Positions 24,355 to 38,927 of a stretch of DNA of 64,000 nucleotides are shown piece by piece (the stretch's first letter is position 1; the number at the start of each line of letters is the position of its first letter). The DNA is taken from the NCBI GenBank assembly GCA_043800705.1, contig JAZDMS010000021.1, positions 21,527-85,526 of the forward strand, read 5' to 3'. This stretch comes from Candidatus Altiarchaeota archaeon (lineage in GTDB: Archaea; Altiarchaeota; Altiarchaeia; IMC4; SCGC-AAA252-I15). The position numbers were made by a program, and so were the translations under genes. The notes under the pieces are model-generated. The model was not told where the DNA came from, searched no databases, and saw nothing but the letters and a program-made list of their open reading frames with translations.

Positions 24355-25381
24355 AGCGGTAGTATATGGCGCAGCTTCCCTCCTCTGAAACCATGCAAGC
24401 GCCTTTAGGATGCTCCGGGCTGCAAGCCCTCCGGTAGAGCGGGCACCCGGTCGGCTGTATGAGGCCTTTCAGGATTTCGCCGCAGCGGCAGCCGGTCTTC
24501 TTCGGGGCCGGGACCCTGTCCAGGAGCGCCTTGTGGACGGCCTTCGCATCCAATGAGCCGTCCCTGACCTCGAGGCCCGACTTTGGAATCGTCCCCAGGC
24601 CCCTCCACTCGCAGTCTGAATGCGTGAAATGCCGCTCAAGGAGCCTCCGGGCCTTTCTGTTGCCTTCTTCCTTCACCGCCTCCGGGTATCCGTTGACGAC
24701 GATGTCTCTGCCGTCCCGGATGAGTTCGAGAAGTAGCATTATCCCGCGCAGGATCCGCTCCGGCGTGAACCCTGATATGACCTGAGGGACTTTTATGCGC
24801 CGGTACGGCTTTACCCCGATGATCGTCGACACGTGGCCCGGGTCGATGAAACCGTCCACCCTGACCTCCCCCGCCATTAGGGCCTCAAGGGCTGGGGGGA
24901 CGAGCCTGTGGGAGGAGTATACAGAGACGCCGTTTTCCAGAAGGTATGCCGTCATGGGCGCCGTCGTCTCGAAGCCTATCCCGAAAAAGGCGGTATCTGG
25001 GTGTGCCTTCTTCAGTGTGACGGCCTCCGTCGCCGAGTAGACCTCGAAGACCCTGCCGCCCCGGGCCCTTGCCTGTTCGAGGCTGTGCCTGGACCCCGGG
25101 ACCCGCATCATGTCGCCGTATGTCGCGACCGGTATTCCGCACATCGCCAGCTCTATCACGCAGTCTATGTCCCTTTGGGGGGTGACGCATACGGGGCAGC
25201 CCGGGCCTGAGATGAGCCTCACGTTCTTCGGGAGGATGTCGCGGATGCCATACCGCATTATGACGTTGGTGTGGCCGCCGCATATCTCCATGATGGTGAT
25301 GTCGGCTCCGATATCAGCGGCGGTCTCGCCTATCCTTCGGAGGTGGGTGTCGATGGCCTTCCGTTCATCCATCGTTGGCAT
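24344..25381 (-). CDS. hypD: Hydrogenase maturation protein HypD
   Basis: MEICGGHT, GPGCPVC, GFETT, PGHVS and CMVSEEGSC. Confidence 0.96.
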   Translation of the reverse strand: MPTMDERKAIDTHLRRIGETAADIGADITIMEICGGHTNVIMRYGIRDILPKNVRLISGPGCPVCVTPQRDIDCVIELAMCGIPVATYGDMMRVPGSRHSLEQARARGGRVFEVYSATEAVTLKKAHPDTAFFGIGFETTAPMTAYLLENGVSVYSSHRLVPPALEALMAGEVRVDGFIDPGHVSTIIGVKPYRRIKVPQVISGFTPERILRGIMLLLELIRDGRDIVVNGYPEAVKEEGNRKARRLLERHFTHSDCEWRGLGTIPKSGLEVRDGSLDAKAVHKALLDRVPAPKKTGCRCGEILKGLIQPTGCPLYRRACSPEHPKGACMVSEEGSCAIYYRFGK

Positions 25382-25607
25382 CCTCCGCCCTCGCGAGTTC
25401 GGCGTATTCCCTGATGAGGCTGAGCGACTCTTCCGCATCCTTTGGGGCGAGCTTCTCGATGGCGAACCCCGCGTGGACGAGGACGTAGTCCCCCCTCTTG
25501 GGGGAGTCTATCATCGAGACGTTCGTCTTCTTCCGGAGGCCGCCGTAGTCGACAGTCGCGATTTCGCCCGTTAGTCCGATTATCTTCGCAGGTATCGCGT
25601 AGCACAT
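25365..25607 (-). CDS. hypC: Hydrogenase chaperone HypC
   Basis: MCYAIPAK and GDYVLVHAGFAI. Confidence 0.95.
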   Translation of the reverse strand: MCYAIPAKIIGLTGEIATVDYGGLRKKTNVSMIDSPKRGDYVLVHAGFAIEKLAPKDAEESLSLIREYAELARAEDANDG

Positions 25608-25757
25608 ATCCTTGTCCTCGACTCCCCCTAAGCCGCCCCGGGGGGAGCGCATCCATCACTATGATAGGGGGATTGTTTTTAAGTACCTCGGGCAGGCATT
25701 GCCGGGCCTGATCAGGGGAATATTGCATAGGTGACTTTTTAGGCTTCCACGGCCGTA

Positions 25758-30463: not shown

Positions 30464-30555
30464 AGAAACCGCCTCCAATAGAAGTAAGGCTTTAAAATTA
30501 TTGTAGAAACTATATGGCATCATGCCTATATAAATGAACCGGTATTCCGCGACTT

Positions 30556-30620
30556 TGCTCCTAAATACTGTTTTGCTCCTTTTTATTTGGGGTTGCTCCT
30601 TTTTAACGAAAACTGCTCCT
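30556..30620 (+). repeat. Left-end TGCTCCT box array
   Basis: Boxes start at 30556, 30574, 30594 and 30614. Confidence 0.93.
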
Positions 30621-30623
30621 TTA

Positions 30624-31232
30624 CTATTGGTTTGAACGGTCTATATCATCTATTTTATCGTTTTTTGTGATTATGGTCATTTTTCTTTCGCTGAGATTTA
30701 TTGAGGATAACATAGGCTCATATAACTCAAAAAATTTCTCAAGGTCAAACCATTGGTCATCTAGTCCTTGAATAATCTTTCCATTTCTACAAGAGAGTAT
30801 TCCTTCTGCAAAGGGGCCCCAATTAGTATATCTCCACCACATTGCCCCTCTCTTTAGAGTTGATTCATAAGGAAAATTAGGTCGTGCAAAAATTGTATGA
30901 TATAAGCCAGTACATTGCCCTATGCGTTCATAAAATCTAGGCAGTGCGTAATAAATTATTCCATTAAATTTATTTTGAAGAAGGTTATGCTGTTCTTTAT
31001 CTAACTCCCAATAGATAGTCCTGCCATTACACTTGGCAGCCTTGAATTGTAAACCAAAAATTTTGTTACCAACTCTAAAAAGTTCATCTGCTGGGAACCT
31101 GGATTCTTGTTTAGGGCTTAGGCTTATCCATTCAACAGCAAAACCCCGCCTTCTAAAATATTCTTCGATACAGGGTACGATTCGTATTGTATACTCCCTT
31201 TCTATGAGTCGGGGATATGTTATTTTAATCAC
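30624..31232 (-). CDS. Putative PD-(D/E)XK nuclease (QxK variant)
   Basis: N-terminal E helix (IEREY), ESRFPAD and GLQFKA. Confidence 0.6.
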   Translation of the reverse strand: MIKITYPRLIEREYTIRIVPCIEEYFRRRGFAVEWISLSPKQESRFPADELFRVGNKIFGLQFKAAKCNGRTIYWELDKEQHNLLQNKFNGIIYYALPRFYERIGQCTGLYHTIFARPNFPYESTLKRGAMWWRYTNWGPFAEGILSCRNGKIIQGLDDQWFDLEKFFELYEPMLSSINLSERKMTIITKNDKIDDIDRSNQ

Positions 31233-31246
31233 CCATTTTGTAGTGC

Positions 31247-32419
31247 CTAACTTACTAATATCTCGTGAACATCCGTCATAATTTTTTTAACTTCCGGTTT
31301 TGTATGTTCTTTTGCTTCGACATATGGAAGATATGTTTTTTTAGTGTCTGAATTAACAATCTTTTTTGAGAGTTCCTTTAGTTCATAATAGAAGGTGTGC
31401 ATCTTATGAACCTTAAGTCCAGGTAACACATGTTGGGGAGTATAAATCTCTTCTAGTGAATACTTTTTACATGTCGGACAAGTACAATGGGGGTCTTTTT
31501 TTATTATCTCATTTTTTCTGTATGCTCCATAGTCGTCTGTTAGCATATACCTACATTTTTCTGGTACTAGTGGTCCTCCCCCCCAAATTACGTTTGATAT
31601 TGTGTCTATCCCATACGCATGGACAAGAACATCGGTAGCTGGTGATATGCCTTTCGTGGATTTCCTATTTGTGGCGACATTGAAAGCATGTAGGTAATAT
31701 TTTTCGTTTTTTTCGCTATTACCTTTAATTTTCAACGAATTGCGGATAGTACGGATAACTGCTCTTAAGAGGGCAGAAGGATAAGATGAACCACTAAAAT
31801 CTACTCCGAATATCCTACATTCCTTGTCCTGCCTCAAATATTCTTTTACTATATCTGCCGCCAAGCTCACATCATCTAAACGAGGGATATATGCCATCAT
31901 TGGCTTTTCGTAATTAAACGTTTGGATTTCGTTTATAGTTCGTTCAATTACCTTTCCCACTATCTTTCTACTACTTACCCCGCCGGGTATGGGCGTAACC
32001 ACTATATCCGTGCCAGTTTCAAGTTCGGCTCCAACGATACTAGACGCTTGTAAATCAGTTATCGTGTGATGCGGATAGATTACTCCATCGACATCGTAAG
32101 TATTTGGTATTCTCGGATACACTATGTTTATGGTTTTTCTAGGGTTGAGTAGCCTAGCAGAAAGCCTATTTTGTAAATCGGTTATAGCTGATGCGGACGT
32201 CCCAATCTGGCTAAAGGTATCATACCCTAGATTTTCACCTGCAATATTGATGGTCGAATCAGGGTACTCATAGCCAGCTATCTTAGCGTATATCTCAGCA
32301 TCCCTGCTGGTTATCCCATGAATAGGCCCAATGGCCTTTTTACCGTTAATCTCAAGACTTAAGCTCCTAGCAAGGCTTACACTGTCTTGTCCTATCACTT
32401 CTAATTCAAAAGAGGTCAT
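31247..32419 (-). CDS. tRNA-guanine transglycosylase (TGT)-fold protein, divergent
   Basis: TGT-like N-terminus (FELEVIGQD..AR), YLHAFNV, AYGIDT and the Zn site CTCPTC...H. Confidence 0.7.
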   Translation of the reverse strand: MTSFELEVIGQDSVSLARSLSLEINGKKAIGPIHGITSRDAEIYAKIAGYEYPDSTINIAGENLGYDTFSQIGTSASAITDLQNRLSARLLNPRKTINIVYPRIPNTYDVDGVIYPHHTITDLQASSIVGAELETGTDIVVTPIPGGVSSRKIVGKVIERTINEIQTFNYEKPMMAYIPRLDDVSLAADIVKEYLRQDKECRIFGVDFSGSSYPSALLRAVIRTIRNSLKIKGNSEKNEKYYLHAFNVATNRKSTKGISPATDVLVHAYGIDTISNVIWGGGPLVPEKCRYMLTDDYGAYRKNEIIKKDPHCTCPTCKKYSLEEIYTPQHVLPGLKVHKMHTFYYELKELSKKIVNSDTKKTYLPYVEAKEHTKPEVKKIMTDVHEILVS

Positions 32420-32450
32420 AGATAGTATATAGTTGCTTGGATTTAAAAGG

Positions 32451-32606
32451 TTATCGGTTGGTTACACCATTTTGTTTCCTAAGTTCATGTAGAATTGCCG
32501 TCTCAACAAATTTGCCTATTGTAAGGTCTAAATCTATCGATTTCTTCTTTGCTTCCTTCCATACCTCTTTGTCTAGCCTTAGACTAACTGTAGTTCTTTC
32601 TGTCAT
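32451..32606 (-). CDS. Small ribbon-helix-helix-like DNA-binding protein (not in the ORF track)
   Basis: Manual translation: MTERTTVSLRLDKEVWKEAKKKSIDLDLTIGKFVETAILHELRK; GTGAT RBS. Confidence 0.7.
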   Translation of the reverse strand: MTERTTVSLRLDKEVWKEAKKKSIDLDLTIGKFVETAILHELRKQNGVTNR

Positions 32607-32701
32607 ATTTATCACATTATATTATGTAATATTGCATTCAAATATTTAAATAAAAGTGTAAACAATAATGTAATAATGTAATAATTTTAACCCTAGTTAC
32701 C

Positions 32702-33907
32702 TTAATATGCCGTAAATGTTGGATTTACCCCTAATTCATGCATTTCCTGTATCAGTACGCAGATATTGTGGCAGATGAACTTGCATAGTAGCTCGTTCAC
32801 CTGCGCCTTGTATTTCTTCGATTTCAGTTTGTCGCCGAACTTCGCCTTAACCATATTCATCGTGGATTCTACGTTGCTTCTTTGGTGGTAGTGCTGTAGG
32901 AACTCCTCTCGGTTCAGTTGAAAGTAGTGGTACATTCTCGTCCACGTTAATGAACCTCTGCTTTTACCGGTGTCATTTTTCTTGAACGGCAGGTAAGCAG
33001 TCGCCCCTATCTTGTTCGCCAAGTTGTAGTTATCTCTGCTCGTGTATGCTTTATCGGCAGTTATCTCCTTGATTTCAAAACCGCCCTCGTAAGCTTCTGT
33101 TATCAATGGAGCGAACTGCGGGCAGTCTGCTCCGTTCTCTGGCGTGATTTTTGCGGAGGCTATCACGTTGGTTTTCGTGCCGACAAGAACGTGCGCCTTA
33201 ACCCAATGATGCTGTCGTCTCGTATTGTGTTTCTCGACGCAGTATTGGTTGAATTGTGTGCTTCGGAATCCTGTGCTGTCAGGCCCGAATGTCGTCTCGA
33301 CGCTTTTCAACGGCAGGGCAGATACCGTAAGGAGCTTGTGCAGTATCGGCGTTATGTCCTCCCTCGGCAGGAACTTGTTGATTGCGTTGAAGTTCGGAGT
33401 CTTGCTAACCTGCTCCCTCTCCTGGGCGTTCCGGTATAGTGTGTGCGCTCTCCTGCTCGACAGACCTGAGTAGACCTTCTGGATAGAGCAGAACAAATCA
33501 TCTCTCAGGCTTATCGGCTTGCGCCCTACAAGGTTAGGGTCACGCTGTGGCTCGTCCACGTTGTCCACTAAGTCCCGCAGGAGCTTGTCGAAAAATGTTA
33601 TCTCCTGCGTCTGTGCCTTGTTATAAGCCGTCCAGTCCTGTTTGTATGTGACTTTCTTGGTTTCAGTCACGGTGGTTGTTCCGTTCTTTTCAACGGTCTT
33701 GCTGATGGTGTGCATCACTGCGTAGCTGTGCTTGCAGGTCACACCCCTAGTCTGGCAGTCTGGGCAGTCGCATACGTAGCGTCCTTCTTTGCGCTGGACG
33801 AAGTATGCGCCGCTCCCGCCTTGTGCTGGCACTATCCACCCATGCTTTGTCTGTTCTAAGCCGCCTTTTTCAGCGATTTGTATTCCTCTCATTTCCCGTG
33901 CATCCAT
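32702..33907 (-). CDS. DDE transposase (IS4/IS5-like) with an N-terminal SWIM zinc finger
   Basis: CDCPDCQTRGVTCKH; catalytic segments DSTGF, ADKAY and YHQRSNVE. Confidence 0.92.
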   Translation of the reverse strand: MDAREMRGIQIAEKGGLEQTKHGWIVPAQGGSGAYFVQRKEGRYVCDCPDCQTRGVTCKHSYAVMHTISKTVEKNGTTTVTETKKVTYKQDWTAYNKAQTQEITFFDKLLRDLVDNVDEPQRDPNLVGRKPISLRDDLFCSIQKVYSGLSSRRAHTLYRNAQEREQVSKTPNFNAINKFLPREDITPILHKLLTVSALPLKSVETTFGPDSTGFRSTQFNQYCVEKHNTRRQHHWVKAHVLVGTKTNVIASAKITPENGADCPQFAPLITEAYEGGFEIKEITADKAYTSRDNYNLANKIGATAYLPFKKNDTGKSRGSLTWTRMYHYFQLNREEFLQHYHQRSNVESTMNMVKAKFGDKLKSKKYKAQVNELLCKFICHNICVLIQEMHELGVNPTFTAY

Positions 33908-33920
33908 TTACATCACCTAC

Positions 33921-33957
33921 TATATACCTATATAGTATATTACTCCATAGGTATATA
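33921..33957. promoter_or_regulatory. Inverted repeat in the divergent transposase / Zn-finger promoter
   Basis: TATATACCTAT-N15-ATAGGTATATA overlapping TATA-like sequence. Confidence 0.55.
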
Positions 33958-34040
33958 AATACTTATCGGTGATGGGATATGTTTATTGGAGTATATACTT
34001 GGTATTTATATACCTGAAAATAATATACTACCTGATAAAG

Positions 34041-34205
34041 ATGGCGTCGAAGGTTGAAATCAAAGTTATGGGCTATCATTGCGAACGATGCGGATACGAA
34101 TGGGTGCCAAGGAACGATAAAGTCTCTCCGAGAGTGTGCCCAAAATGTAAAAGCCCCTACTGGGACAAACCGAGGAAAAAACAAGCTCAAGGAGGAATAA
34201 GTTAA
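34041..34205 (+). CDS. Small C4 zinc-ribbon protein
   Basis: CERCGYEW...VCPKCKSPYW. Confidence 0.8.
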   Translation: MASKVEIKVMGYHCERCGYEWVPRNDKVSPRVCPKCKSPYWDKPRKKQAQGGIS

Positions 34206-34281
34206 ATATTTTTCTATCGCTCTCTTTGTACACCTATTTAAGCTAAGCTAGTTTAGATAGTAATTGCATGATGAAGTAGAT

Positions 34282-34872
34282 ATGGCAACTGAGGTTAGGG
34301 ATTATTTCATCTTAGATGTAGAGACTAGTCCTATTGATTTTGAAGCATATGATACTCTCTCTGAAGAGGAAAAATTAAAAAAGCTGAATCCAATTGATTC
34401 AAGGATAGTAGCAATTGGTATTCGGTATCGTGGTGTAGACACTATATTTTCTCAGGAGGATGAAAAAGAATTATTAGATGAATTTTGGTTACATTGGAAA
34501 ACAATAATTAAAGGTGGTAATCTAATCAAAGTTGTTGGATTCAATATAAATAATTTTGATTTACCATTCATTATTACTAGAAGTTATTTCCATGGAGTCG
34601 AAATATCCCCTTTTGTATTGAAAGATTTTATTATTGACATACGAGATAAAATTTCCGCTTATAGATACGGTCCTTGTAGAGGTACCTTAAAAGATTTTGG
34701 GCCTTGTGCAGGAGCAACAGTAATGGATATTGATGGAAGTGCTGTTCCTAAGCTCTACCATGAGGGCAAGACTGAGGAAATAATTAAATATCTAAAAAAT
34801 GACTTACTAATGACAGATAAGGTTTTTCAGAGAATACGTGATACCAAAATAGTTTATATTGATAGGTGGTAA
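34282..34872 (+). CDS. DEDDy 3'-5' exonuclease (RNase H-like fold)
   Basis: ExoI LDVET, ExoII GFNINNFDLPF, ExoIII YLKND. Confidence 0.85.
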   Translation: MATEVRDYFILDVETSPIDFEAYDTLSEEEKLKKLNPIDSRIVAIGIRYRGVDTIFSQEDEKELLDEFWLHWKTIIKGGNLIKVVGFNINNFDLPFIITRSYFHGVEISPFVLKDFIIDIRDKISAYRYGPCRGTLKDFGPCAGATVMDIDGSAVPKLYHEGKTEEIIKYLKNDLLMTDKVFQRIRDTKIVYIDRW

Positions 34873-34875
34873 CTT

Positions 34876-35442
34876 ATGGATAAACTTCCCGCATCCAAAA
34901 AAGTAGAGGACGATGCTAATGACTCTGAAAATAAGTACGCTACAGTAAGCCTACAAGTCAACAATAAGCTGAAAGAAGCTATATTCTACATCGTCTCAAA
35001 ATGCAATGAAAAACCAAGTTTTGGAAGAGTAAACTTATGGAAACTATTGTATTTCTCAGATTTTAATTTCTATAAGAAGCACTATGTCTCGATAACGGGG
35101 GAAGAATATAGAAAGTTGGACCTGGGCCCAGGACCAGTTCATTTTGATACTACTATAAATGCCCTTACCTCTGAAGGGTTTATTGAAGAAAAGAAGCGGG
35201 GAGGAGCAAAATATGACCCTTATGTGTATACTATAAAAAAAGATATGAAGATTACCCATCTGGCCCCACAAGAATTAAGGCAAATTGACAACGTTATTCA
35301 TAAGTTAGGTGATTGTTCAGCTACTAAAATTAGCGAAATATCTCATAAGGATACCCCGTGGAAAGTTACTGACGATAAAGAGATAATAGATTATGACCTC
35401 GTTTTTTATAGGCATGACGCGGTTGCGGCTCAAGTAGAATAA
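34876..35442 (+). CDS. Panacea (DUF4065/SocA-like) antitoxin
   Basis: LWKLLYFSDF, ITGEEY...GP and ISEISHKDTPW. Confidence 0.88.
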   Translation: MDKLPASKKVEDDANDSENKYATVSLQVNNKLKEAIFYIVSKCNEKPSFGRVNLWKLLYFSDFNFYKKHYVSITGEEYRKLDLGPGPVHFDTTINALTSEGFIEEKKRGGAKYDPYVYTIKKDMKITHLAPQELRQIDNVIHKLGDCSATKISEISHKDTPWKVTDDKEIIDYDLVFYRHDAVAAQVE

Positions 35443-35443
35443 A

Positions 35444-35827
35444 ATGGACTCCGATTATGTGGAGGAATTTTATCCCCCCTTCAATAGTCATTTTAAAGCG
35501 TGCTTAAAAAACTTTAGACATACGTTTGAGGAAGATTTTGGGCGGCTTAGAAAAGTTGTTTTAATTGAAAGGGAATCTGCAAGCTGCACTGATAAAATCG
35601 CTAATCTAGGTAGTGAGGTATCGTTACCAGTATATAAAATCCATATGCACGTTAAACAAGCAAGTGGAAAAATTGGCCGTGTTATATTCATACTAGACAA
35701 ACCACAAAAAAGGATAGTGTACGTTGATATTTACACAAAAAACAAACAATCAAACCACGATTCTAAGTGGATAAGAGAAGCATATACGTGGTATGTGGAA
35801 TATATTAGTAAAGTACCTCCTTATTAA
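35444..35827 (+). CDS. RelE/HigB-like toxin
   Basis: VYKI...GKIGRVIF...IVYVDIYTK; starts 1 nt after the antitoxin stop. Confidence 0.6.
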   Translation: MDSDYVEEFYPPFNSHFKACLKNFRHTFEEDFGRLRKVVLIERESASCTDKIANLGSEVSLPVYKIHMHVKQASGKIGRVIFILDKPQKRIVYVDIYTKNKQSNHDSKWIREAYTWYVEYISKVPPY

Positions 35828-35860
35828 CAATACATCAGGACCAGGACCATGAGCTACATT

Positions 35861-35938
35861 TGCTCCTTTTTACCCCCGGCTGCTCCTAAATGGTTTTAGA
35901 TGCTCCTTTATGCTGCTCCTATTTGAAGTTAAGGAGCA
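35861..35938 (+). repeat. Right-end TGCTCCT box array
   Basis: Direct boxes at 35861, 35881, 35901 and 35914; one inverted AGGAGCA at 35932. Confidence 0.93.
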
Positions 35939-36001
35939 AAGCCGGTATTCCGCCGGTTGCCGTGGTTCTCCCTTTTTTATCGGGCAATCCAAGTATATTT
36001 G

Positions 36002-37084: not shown

Positions 37085-38031
37085 AGGGGATTCTGAAAAG
37101 CAGGGGCGCATTTGCGGGGGCCGCGTACGCGGCCGTCTCTTACGCCGTGATCGCGGCCCTCAGCTACGGGAGTCCTTTTGTCATTTCCGGCTCTTGGGCC
37201 TTTCTGTTCGTCGCCCCCATCTACCTGACACATGCCATCCTGATATTCGTCGTCTGACTCCCTTTCGCACTCCTTGGAATGCGCTTTTATGACCTTGGAA
37301 TGCGCTTTGATGACCTGGCTATGCCGGTCCTGACTCTCGCCAATATTATCCTGTGGGCTTTCCTTGGCGCATACATCCAGCATTTGAAACTGTTGTCTTT
37401 GAAAAAACGAAATATTCCATTCTACTTTTCAGTTGCGGTCATCCTGTACAACCTGCTCACAGTCGGCTGTATCGGCTGCAATTACGGCACCGTCCTATTG
37501 TCGCTCGTCCTTGTTTTTGCGGCATGGATTATCTGGGCTGACCTTACGATGCCGGTCTTAATAGCCCATCTCCTGGTGTTTTTCATGATCTCCCAGCTCG
37601 GAGGCTTCTGCCCCTGCGGCCCGATGGGGCCGACGGCGACGGGCTTCGCGAAGCTGAAGCCGCAGCTTGCGGGCACATACGTCACAGGCCATTTAGGCAC
37701 TACGAATTTCATCTTCACCAACGGGGCTGCCGGGACGATACGGGTGCAGAGCGTCGCGGTAGAGGACCTGGTCTCGCCGGTCGCATCGCCTTGCGCCGGC
37801 GCCAATGCGCTTCAGTCGAATTCGGCGGACCTGGTCGGCGAGAATGCAGACTCGAGGACTGTCGTGGTCCCATACGGCGAGAACCTCAGGATCTCCAACC
37901 AGGGCTGCCTCTCGGCCATGGAGACGGGGGAGGTCTACAACGCGAGGGTCCGGATCACATACGCGATAGACGTGAACGGAAAAAGAACCCTCGCGACGGA
38001 AACGGGGACGATAAGGGGGCCGGCGGAATGA
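37081..38031 (+). pseudogene. Multi-TM protein with a pilin-like C-terminal domain, interrupted by an in-frame TGA at 37255-37257
   Basis: The two tracked ORFs are in one frame and together align with the downstream paralogue. Confidence 0.7.
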
Positions 38032-38927
38032 TGTTGGACCTTCTGAGACGCAGGGGCGCTTTCGCTGGGGCGGCTTATGCGGTCTTCGGGGTTCTGGCTC
38101 AGGCTGCCCTAGCCTACGGCCATCCCCCGGGGCTGGACATCTCGTCTGCTTTCATTCTCATCTTTGCGCCGCTAAACCTTACGATGGCCGTCTTAATGTT
38201 CGCGTTGACTTTGCCGTTCCGATTTGTTGGATTAGACAGAGTTGCGGAAATGCTGTTTCCCGCCGTTTACCCTGCGAACTTCATCTTATGGGCGGTTATC
38301 GGGGACTTCTTTGAACGCAAGACATCTCTGAAAATATCCCGACGTATCATACCATTCATCGTCTCGGCTTTGGCCATATCCTACAATGTCGGGTCAGGCT
38401 GCGTTTCATGCCATTATAACGTCTTTCTTGGGTCGTTTTTCGTGGCGCTGGCGGCATGGGTCATCTGGTCCGAATTGACGGTGCCGGTGGTGTTCTTCCA
38501 TCTGATGATTTTCCTGGTCATATCCCAGCTTGGGATATTCGGCTGCTCTTGCGGACCTATGATAGCAAATTCTTATGGGTTTGTTAAAATCAAGCCTGTA
38601 TTGCCGGCGACTGGTATGAACAGTGGAGGGAACATCTCTGTGATCATGACAAACGGTGTCGGGGGGAATGTCTCGATCGATGCTGAGGGGATAGTATTGG
38701 CTGATCTTGTCAGCGGCGGAAACTGCTCCGGGGTCCGGTTGACTGTGTCTGAAGGACGGGAGGATGCTATACCGCCGGGCACCAACGTTGGGATAGATGC
38801 AAAATGCCCGCCATTGCCGGCAGGTGACATCTACAAAATTAGATTTACAATCCCATACGAGGCCGCAATCAACGGGAAGACGGAGAAAAGAACGGAATCC
38901 GGGACTATAAGTGGGCCGGTGGAGTGA
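38028..38927 (+). CDS. Multi-TM protein with a pilin-like C-terminal domain (intact paralogue)
   Basis: RGAFAGAAY, ISQLGIF, GFVKIKP, TNGVG and ESGTISGPVE. Confidence 0.8.
   Translation: MMLDLLRRRGAFAGAAYAVFGVLAQAALAYGHPPGLDISSAFILIFAPLNLTMAVLMFALTLPFRFVGLDRVAEMLFPAVYPANFILWAVIGDFFERKTSLKISRRIIPFIVSALAISYNVGSGCVSCHYNVFLGSFFVALAAWVIWSELTVPVVFFHLMIFLVISQLGIFGCSCGPMIANSYGFVKIKPVLPATGMNSGGNISVIMTNGVGGNVSIDAEGIVLADLVSGGNCSGVRLTVSEGREDAIPPGTNVGIDAKCPPLPAGDIYKIRFTIPYEAAINGKTEKRTESGTISGPVE

Follow-up and report, generated by a model that had tools for sequence, protein, structure and literature searches.

The locus considered here lies in a window of 64,000 nucleotides (nt) from contig JAZDMS010000021.1 of a Candidatus Altiarchaeota archaeon, and it raises the question of whether an AT-rich insert of 5,393 bp in that window (30551–35943) is a mobile element and, if so, of what kind. 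An earlier note on this DNA had described the insert as an intact cargo transposon from a poorly described class of single-transposase archaeal elements. Our analyses indicate that it is an intact, and probably autonomous, DDE transposon with six putative sites for its transposase, and that it is one member of a very large, IS903-related family, a reading to which we assign a probability of roughly 0.85.

Borders and End Arrays of the Insert

The insert is flanked by a perfect 10-bp direct repeat, GGTATTCCGC, and both this repeat and the AT-rich segment that it encloses are present as they had been described. The repeat occurs three times in the window, compared with 0.20 expected, and three or more copies were seen in 0 of 100 shuffles; the third match, at 25131, is unrelated to the insert. 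Read at its longest, the duplication reaches 12 bp (CCGGTATTCCGC) on both sides of the insert. The 12-bp terminal inverted repeats reported for the segment are likewise there, with the termini GACTTTGCTCCT and GGCTTTGCTCCT (the latter as the reverse complement) identical at 11 of 12 positions. The GC content of the insert is 0.31–0.43, that of its flanks 0.55–0.61, and the insert is the sole AT-rich island of the window, all other 2-kb stretches having a GC content of at least 0.54. The element lies in an intergenic spacer, and the two divergently transcribed host genes on either side are read as encoding a proteasome beta subunit (from its GTTTIG motif) and a CorA-type channel (from its YGMNF motif). 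These two genes are adjacent and about 250–340 bp apart, with no insert between them, in a genome of the same genus (G001) and one of the same family (G016), and G001 reads ...AAATGCCGGTTGC... at the point of the empty site. No tRNA gene or Rfam element was found in or beside the insert. There are eight open reading frames (ORFs) within the 5,393 bp, and the interpretation of the insert as an intact transposon with passenger genes is supported by the features of its sequence.

The heptamer TGCTCCT was found 26 times in the window compared with 8.59 ± 2.93 expected, and a count of 26 was reached in 0 of 100 shuffles. At the left end there are four boxes, all on the plus strand (30556, 30574, 30594 and 30614; spacings 18, 20 and 20). 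The earlier note had counted four boxes at each end, which holds for the left end, while at the right end we count five, with four on the plus strand (35861, 35881, 35901 and 35914; spacings 20, 20 and 13) and one on the minus strand (35932). Its observation that the right-end boxes point in the same direction as those on the left, with only the terminal right box inverted, is confirmed by these strands. Across the whole 2.0-Mb genome, clusters of at least four boxes were present at these two ends only.

The Transposase

The transposase encoded in the insert (Table 1) matches DDE_Tnp_1 (PF01609) with an E-value of 1.6e-19 (70.9 bits, cut-off 23). Alignment of 25 homologues showed no variation at the finger residues C46, C48, C58 and H60 or at D210, D285, Y340, R343, E347 and K354. 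By our count, a precomputed match to the SWIM family (PF04434) is present in nine of the 120 best homologues. The AlphaFold model of the protein (predicted local distance difference test score 75.4) comprises a small N-terminal beta/alpha finger domain, a disordered linker, a helical region and an RNase H-like core, and a fold search with this model returned only generic DDE transposases and integrases with template modeling (TM) scores of 0.33 or below. With PADLOC the transposase gave just a weak, chance-level match (E 0.0042).

Some strong representatives of the family (P0125, P0130, P0140 and others) were observed to align only from profile position ~81–93 onward. This start of the alignment suggests that their N-terminus is something other than the SWIM-like finger, or that they have none.

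A Large Transposase Family with Shared Ends

Homologues of the transposase numbered 2,128 at E ≤ 1e-3, and the best 120 of them are proteins of 356–427 amino acids (aa) that are 55–80% identical to it and are named just "transposase". A profile search of 1.84 billion cluster representatives gave 8,739 matches at E ≤ 1e-3, 4,318 at E ≤ 1e-10 and 1,284 at E ≤ 1e-30, the last being representatives of 50%-identity clusters. Counting one genome per species, at least 587 loci were confirmed, and the 80 best-scoring of these form the set that we analyzed in detail. The archaeal sources among the 80 include Aenigm-, Micr-, Alti-, Had-, Nano- and Woesearchaeota, Bathyarchaeia, Methanothrix, Methanoregulaceae, Methanoperedens and Thermoplasmata, and the bacterial ones include Dehalococcoidia, Acidobacteriota, Planctomycetes, Desulfobacteria and others. 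A further 25 family loci (L143–L167) were found on predicted viral contigs that were up to 618 kb long. The class is not restricted to archaea, as had been supposed, since its loci are also found in bacteria and on viral contigs.

The elements were delimited blind, by looking for inverted repeats that match at 10 or more of 14 positions and are directly bordered by an exact direct repeat of a 9-mer. Of the 80 loci, 50 were delimited by this rule, as was L015 (79% aa identity, 6,538 bp), the nearest relative of the window element; these 50 loci, L015 and the window element make up the 52-element set used below. Five of the 80 loci (L041, L078, L087, L088 and L100) were dropped because their best repeat pair lacked a family terminus. 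Another 25 had no repeat pair, and many of these have the transposase near a contig end by its coordinates. In L068, L069 and L085 the inverted repeats match at 15–16 of 16 positions and there is no exact duplication. On the viral contigs, which served as an independent set, five of the 25 loci were left out as their transposase matches were truncated, and 17 of the remaining 20 could be delimited in the same way, 15 with a duplication of 9 bp and two (L143 and L154) with one of 10 bp.

The termini of the family read (G/A)GCTTTG, with a few variants such as GCC or GCG. The reading in the earlier note depended on homologues having the same kind of ends, and they do, as (G/A)GCTTTG termini and box arrays recur in the family. 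The 10-bp duplications that it expected around homologues are a minority, since the duplication is exactly 9 bp in 51 elements and exactly 10 bp in three (the window element, L087 and L096, with canonical termini), but they do recur in the latter two. Target sites have a weak two-fold symmetric preference, being T-rich at −4/−3 and A-rich at +11/+12.

Conserved Boxes That Co-Vary within Elements

To compare the arrays, elements were oriented by the transposase, with the upstream end called A and the downstream end called B, both read inward. In the family layout, each element has its own 7-nt box at nt 6, 24 and 44 of the A end, all in one direction, and at nt 6, 37 and 57 of the B end, the last two inverted. 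With at most one mismatch, the element's own box was found in the 52 elements at A24 in 44, at A44 in 39, at B6 in 48, at B37 in 38 and at B57 in 37. Boxes taken from other elements (with at least three differences) fitted in only 0.2–1.5% of 1,698 pairings, and none of 260 tests gave a fit of the own box at shifted positions. The box exists in 27 sequence versions (e.g., TGCACGT, TGCTAAT, TGCTCCT, TGTGTAA and TGCCCGA), which are matched within each element. Site logos lengthen the box to ~13 nt, consisting of TG, a variable core and (T)AAAGT. The window copy has the six canonical boxes, all of them exact, and three extras (A64, B24-inverted and B77-inverted). The phased, same-direction arrays that had been noticed in the window are real and are conserved across the family, and because they are found family-wide, what seemed an oddity, the inner boxes of both ends pointing alike, is the rule.

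Two miniature elements are made up of family ends alone. In a genome of the same family as the window's host, a 126-bp element (L016, 8296–8421) has an A end joined to a B end within a 9-bp duplication and is 93% identical to the B end of the window element. Its junction lies inside the box that is directly repeated at both ends, and this fits a deletion by recombination between same-direction boxes. On a metagenome contig, an 86-bp element (L108, 710–795) has three A boxes, the terminal B box only and a 9-bp duplication.

The boxes could instead be operators of a regulator encoded by the element, for example the zinc-ribbon or the ribbon-helix-helix protein, or sites for a host factor, with the transposase needing only the terminal 12–16 nt. 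A zinc-ribbon gene does adjoin the transposase gene in the window element and in 13 of 49 elements, L108 has its duplication without inner B-end boxes, and IS903 works with simple 18-bp inverted repeats. Against this, each inner box resembles the inward portion of the terminal inverted repeat, and the two change together across 27 variants. In addition, no protein other than the transposase is common to all elements, the zinc-ribbon gene being missing from 36 of the 49, and a host factor would not be expected to track element-specific sequences across archaea and bacteria. We therefore consider an operator or host-factor role for the boxes unlikely.

We favor the reading that the boxes are transposase sites, and from it a working model can be outlined. 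The transposase would recognize a site of ~13 nt made up of TG, three to five element-specific bases and (T)AAAGT. There would be six such sites, three arranged head-to-tail at one end (6, 24 and 44) and, at the other, the terminal one (6) and two inverted ones (37 and 57), and the transposase likely binds all six, probably via the N-terminal finger and the helical region. The ~20-bp spacing should place the sites on one face of the helix, and with this phasing a multi-subunit, end-asymmetric transpososome would assemble, its asymmetry presumably arising from the different layouts of the two ends. Cleavage would then occur at the GGC/GAC termini and insertion with a stagger of 9–10 bp. Recombination between the same-direction boxes of both ends could delete the interior and so give rise to derivatives that resemble miniature inverted-repeat transposable elements.

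Separately, we noted that in the first ~45 nt of the L045 B end, read inward, the terminal box and the inverted nt-37 box lie inside a near-perfect palindrome with arms of ~17 nt. This palindrome could form a hairpin just 3′ of the transposase stop codon.

Cargo and Its Exchange

The delimited elements range from 2,480 to 13,394 bp in size (median 5.1 kb), and there is no bare insertion sequence (IS) among them. Upstream of the transposase gene there are at least 499 bp in all 49 elements examined for this (median 2.9 kb), and downstream there are more than 400 bp in 37 of the 49. By ORF clustering, the transposase is the only gene that is common to the family (49 of 52 ORF sets, the other three being masked by antisense ORFs), which bears out the earlier view of a single transposase per element. 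The zinc-ribbon gene, divergent from that of the transposase, was present in only 13 of 49 elements, the window element included, and was consequently rejected as a universal second core gene. Where it is present, its product has a strongly conserved motif (C-x-R-C-G-H-x-W ... P-R ... V-C-P-x-C-K-S-P-Y-W-x-K-P-R).

Pfam was used to scan the cargo of 49 elements (149 ORFs, each 120 aa or longer), with L086, L094 and L095 left out owing to the masking of their genes by antisense ORFs. Most frequent were the families N6_Mtase (15), Eco57I (13), MmeI_Mtase (10), Methylase_S (5) and TaqI_C (5), and further cargo included C-5 methylase (4) with Vsr (4), HNH (4), NYN (4), N6_N4_Mtase (3), DUF488 (3) and several type II restriction endonucleases. 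Large proteins of the type IIG kind (298–978 aa, median 793) formed one cluster, with members in 18 of the 52 elements, and the PADLOC matches of the family cargo were chiefly to methyltransferase and type IIG models. Judged by these domain assignments, the cargo of the family is mainly restriction-modification.

Two elements on one Methanoregulaceae contig, L045 (7117–11243) and L048 (7569–11243), show how this content can differ between elements of one genome. They have in common their first 58 bp (90% identity) and last ~1,534 bp (84%), and this shared ~1.5 kb consists of a small ORF, the transposase gene and the B end, whereas their cargo is unrelated. Because the two differ between the A end and the core, that space acts as an exchangeable slot. 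In our reading, the short ends of an element of this family are separated from its transposase core by one or two slots for cargo, and the content of these slots is freely exchanged.

These data also bear on whether the window insert is a composite, that is, a simple IS with the transposase gene alone, nested in an unrelated AT-rich island that was moved by other means. The transposase gene does have a GC content of 0.48–0.53, compared with 0.31–0.43 in the rest of the insert, but there are no inverted repeats or duplication around that gene alone, and no integrase or other recombinase was found in the insert in domain and profile scans. Furthermore, the distant ends co-occur with the transposase family-wide and share an element-specific box, and in L045 and L048 it is the ends and transposase that are held in common and the cargo that is not. 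A composite origin is for these reasons very improbable.

Is the Window Element Intact?

Several observations weigh against the reading of the window insert as an intact member of a family with six transposase sites. Some concern the family evidence. The detailed set holds only the best-scoring loci, and its elements were selected on the duplication and inverted repeats; no more than 25 of the 52 elements have a fitting box (at most one mismatch) at every one of the six canonical sites; and in the viral-contig set, which is more distant, the box positions are less strictly fixed. The absence of the two inner B-end boxes from L108 means that these boxes may be non-essential. Others concern the transposase. 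The earlier note had assigned it a SWIM finger and an IS4/IS5-like DDE core with Y-x2-R-x3-E, and the core, the signature and the invariant cysteines and histidine stand, but the Pfam SWIM score is 16.9 bits, under the gathering score of 19.6. Likewise, the best of seven IS-family NCBIfam models, IS5-family NF033579, scored 127.9 bits against a cut-off of 140.

The remaining observations concern the window copy itself. Its duplication is 10 bp where 9 bp is usual, and it has GGC at one terminus and GAC at that of the A end, where the family has GGC. Its transposase gene is directed toward the A end, opposite to that of 49 of 52 relatives, an orientation shared by L040 and L099. The empty sites in relatives are too diverged (flanking genes 78% identical) for a single copy of GGTATTCCGC to be read there. 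The host genome, which is 87.5% complete, has one transposase copy only, and a near-identical copy was not found elsewhere, as a 32-nt A-end pattern had zero matches in metagenome contigs; a looser three-box pattern matched 40 metagenome loci, none of them with the cargo of the window element.

On the basis of the single copy, the GAC terminus with the atypical duplication, the inverted transposase core and the lack of an identical copy in the other collections searched, the insert could be a family member that has become an immobile relic and is kept as a small defence or toxin-antitoxin island. Some of these features, however, have counterparts elsewhere in the data. GAC termini are also found in other duplication-delimited elements (L030, L032, the L016 miniature and L108), 10-bp duplications recur in L087, L096, L143 and L154, and a single copy is typical for the family in the host phylum. 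In addition, the transposase reading frame is full length and keeps every invariant residue, the duplication is perfect, the terminal repeats match at 11 of 12 positions and all six canonical boxes are exact. We consider it quite unlikely that the element is a relic.

Within the host phylum, a match to the transposase at E ≤ 1e-40 was found in seven of 61 genomes including the window's own, nearly all with a single copy, and in none of the four other genomes of the same genus. This patchy presence fits a horizontal gain of the element. A further DDE match, on contig C41 of genome G000 (24996–25640, minus strand; L002), is distant (27% identity) and has one in-frame TAG, and it was rejected as a family member.

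Relationship to Known Elements

IS903 is about 1 kb long, with a single gene and simple 18-bp inverted repeats, and is not known to carry passenger genes or a SWIM N-terminus. The account of IS903B in PMC10569121 gives inverted repeats that begin GGCTTTG and a 9-bp direct repeat. The present family resembles these elements in its IS5-type DDE core with the Y-R-E-K signature, its GGCTTTG-type termini and its 9-bp duplication (10 bp in the window element). It differs in that its members are 2.5–13.4 kb in size, always have cargo and have six phased sites and a SWIM-like N-terminus. The closest annotated plasmid relatives of the transposase are IS5-family transposases of the ISPpa3 and ISPam2 types with ~23% identity over aa 91–393, and this alignment, which is to plasmid IS5-family transposases and not to IS903 itself, falls short of a clear full-length match to the IS903 group. 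Among the plasmid records, none covers 80% or more of the transposase query or reaches its N-terminus. As to whether the architecture matches an already defined IS family, a point raised in the earlier note, the ends and duplication match IS903, whereas the SWIM-like N-terminus, the cargo and the box arrays do not. The combination of IS903-type termini and duplication with a distant transposase indicates that the core machinery is IS903-like, yet belongs to a distinct and distant branch.

Multiple end sites and passenger genes each have precedents in other systems. Tn7 and phage Mu have several transposase-binding sites per end, with different arrangements on the left and right. The asymmetric layout of the family, with its six putative sites, is analogous in its sequence pattern, but the transposase is of the IS5 type and not of the TnsB/MuA type, the duplication is 9–10 bp and not 5 bp, and the window element lacks a TnsC/MuB-type ATPase. 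Profile scans of the window element found no such ATPase and no second transposition or target-selection protein. PIF/Harbinger elements also have an IS5-related DDE transposase and subterminal repeated recruiting sites, but those sites are bound by a separate Myb-like protein and the duplication is 3 bp, while in the present family the transposase itself includes a zinc-finger region and the duplication measures 9–10 bp. Transporter IS (tIS), as defined in PMC9330008, consist of an IS-type transposase and ends with integral passenger genes. The window element fits this definition, with IS-type ends and a transposase enclosing passenger genes. The family differs from tIS in that cargo is a family-wide rule (the shortest of the 52 elements is 2,480 bp) and is chiefly restriction-modification and not antibiotic resistance. 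Lastly, Furuta, Abe and Kobayashi (2010, PMC2853133) described restriction-modification units bounded by inverted repeats and a short duplication. The units in the main text of that paper have 8-bp duplications, repeats of 26–65 bp and no linked transposase, and no IS5 or 9-bp case is given there.

No description of the family was found in full-text searches of the literature, in which its terminal 12-mers matched primer lists only. ISfinder, TnCentral and the supplements of papers lay outside this comparison, so any claim of novelty is provisional. The earlier view of a poorly described class holds insofar as the family is undescribed in the literature searched, but the class is not wholly new, as its core is of the IS5 type. 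According to a 2019 survey of archaeal integrated elements, passenger-carrying DNA transposons had not been detected in archaea (PMC6563490). Set against that statement, the family is abundant in archaea, and it is also present in bacteria and on viral contigs.

A broader synthesis is possible, and we put it forward tentatively. In it, the family would constitute a major class of prokaryotic unit transposons that has so far had no name, and no abundant DDE transposons with cargo would have been recognized in archaea before it. An IS903-like core would have gained a zinc-finger region and a six-site, end-asymmetric transpososome, and the elements would act as a cross-domain shuttle for restriction-modification and defence genes. 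The tRNA-guanine transglycosylase (TGT)-fold and nuclease-like proteins of the window element (Table 1) would together be a novel pair akin to restriction-modification, with base exchange as the means of marking DNA. The family points to a route by which restriction-modification and other defence genes could move between genomes and domains, and its transposases and site sequences, matched in at least 27 pairs, offer a natural series for the study of end reading and left/right discrimination by a DDE transposase. Its compactness (one ~400-aa protein, two ends of ~65 bp and several kilobases of cargo) makes it a candidate genetic tool for archaea.

Genes of the Window Element and Its Surroundings

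The features of the window element are given in Table 1. Cargo had been reported on either side of the transposase gene, and this is confirmed by the ORFs and the domain scan.

Table 1. Features of the window element, with positions counted from the first nucleotide of the window.
Feature	Positions	Strand	Basis
Target-site duplication, left copy, GGTATTCCGC	30541..30550	.	
A-type end; terminal 12 nt GACTTTGCTCCT; four direct TGCTCCT boxes at nt 6, 24, 44 and 64	30551..30620	+	
Cargo protein, 202 aa; fold weakly like PD-(D/E)XK nucleases	30624..31232	-	No family match; TM about 0.5, a lead only
Cargo protein, 390 aa; TGT fold	31247..32419	-	TM 0.69 to clusters 100% PF01702
Arc-like ribbon-helix-helix protein, 54 aa; cargo or regulator	32451..32615	-	Weak matches
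Transposase, 401 aa; N-terminal SWIM-like CxCxnCxH finger and IS5-type DDE core with Y-x2-R-x3-E-x6-K	32702..33907	-	Pfam, alignment, structure
Palindrome with 17-nt arms, in the divergent intergenic region between transposase and zinc-ribbon genes	33921..33957	.	
Zinc-ribbon protein, 54 aa, divergent from transposase	34041..34205	+	
Cargo 3′-5′ exonuclease, related to PolB exonuclease domain	34282..34872	+	DNA_pol_B_exo2, 4.7e-12
Cargo SocA/Panacea-domain antitoxin-like protein	34876..35442	+	8.2e-17
Cargo protein, 127 aa, of no known family; translationally coupled to Panacea gene	35444..35827	+	
B-type end; four boxes in A-end direction and one inverted terminal box; terminal 12 nt are the reverse complement of GGCTTTGCTCCT	35861..35943	+	
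Target-site duplication, right copy, GGTATTCCGC	35944..35953	.	

The palindrome between the two divergent genes may be an operator or promoter, and the 127-aa protein may be the toxin partner of the Panacea antitoxin-like protein to which it is coupled. PADLOC gave no match for the seven cargo ORFs of the window element. The 390-aa protein had no Pfam sequence match, and its archaeal clusters lack one as well. Together with the ribbon-helix-helix and 202-aa genes, its gene forms an apparent operon (30624–32615, minus strand), which fills the slot that in the family usually holds restriction-modification genes. The TGT-fold and 202-aa proteins may be a pair for DNA modification by base exchange and for restriction.

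Downstream of the CorA-type gene, two neighbouring ORFs on the plus strand (37279–38031 and 37791–38927) encode similar membrane-type proteins. They share the stretches ...ISQLG..C.CGPM... and, at the end, ...GTI.GP.E, and they look like tandem paralogues.

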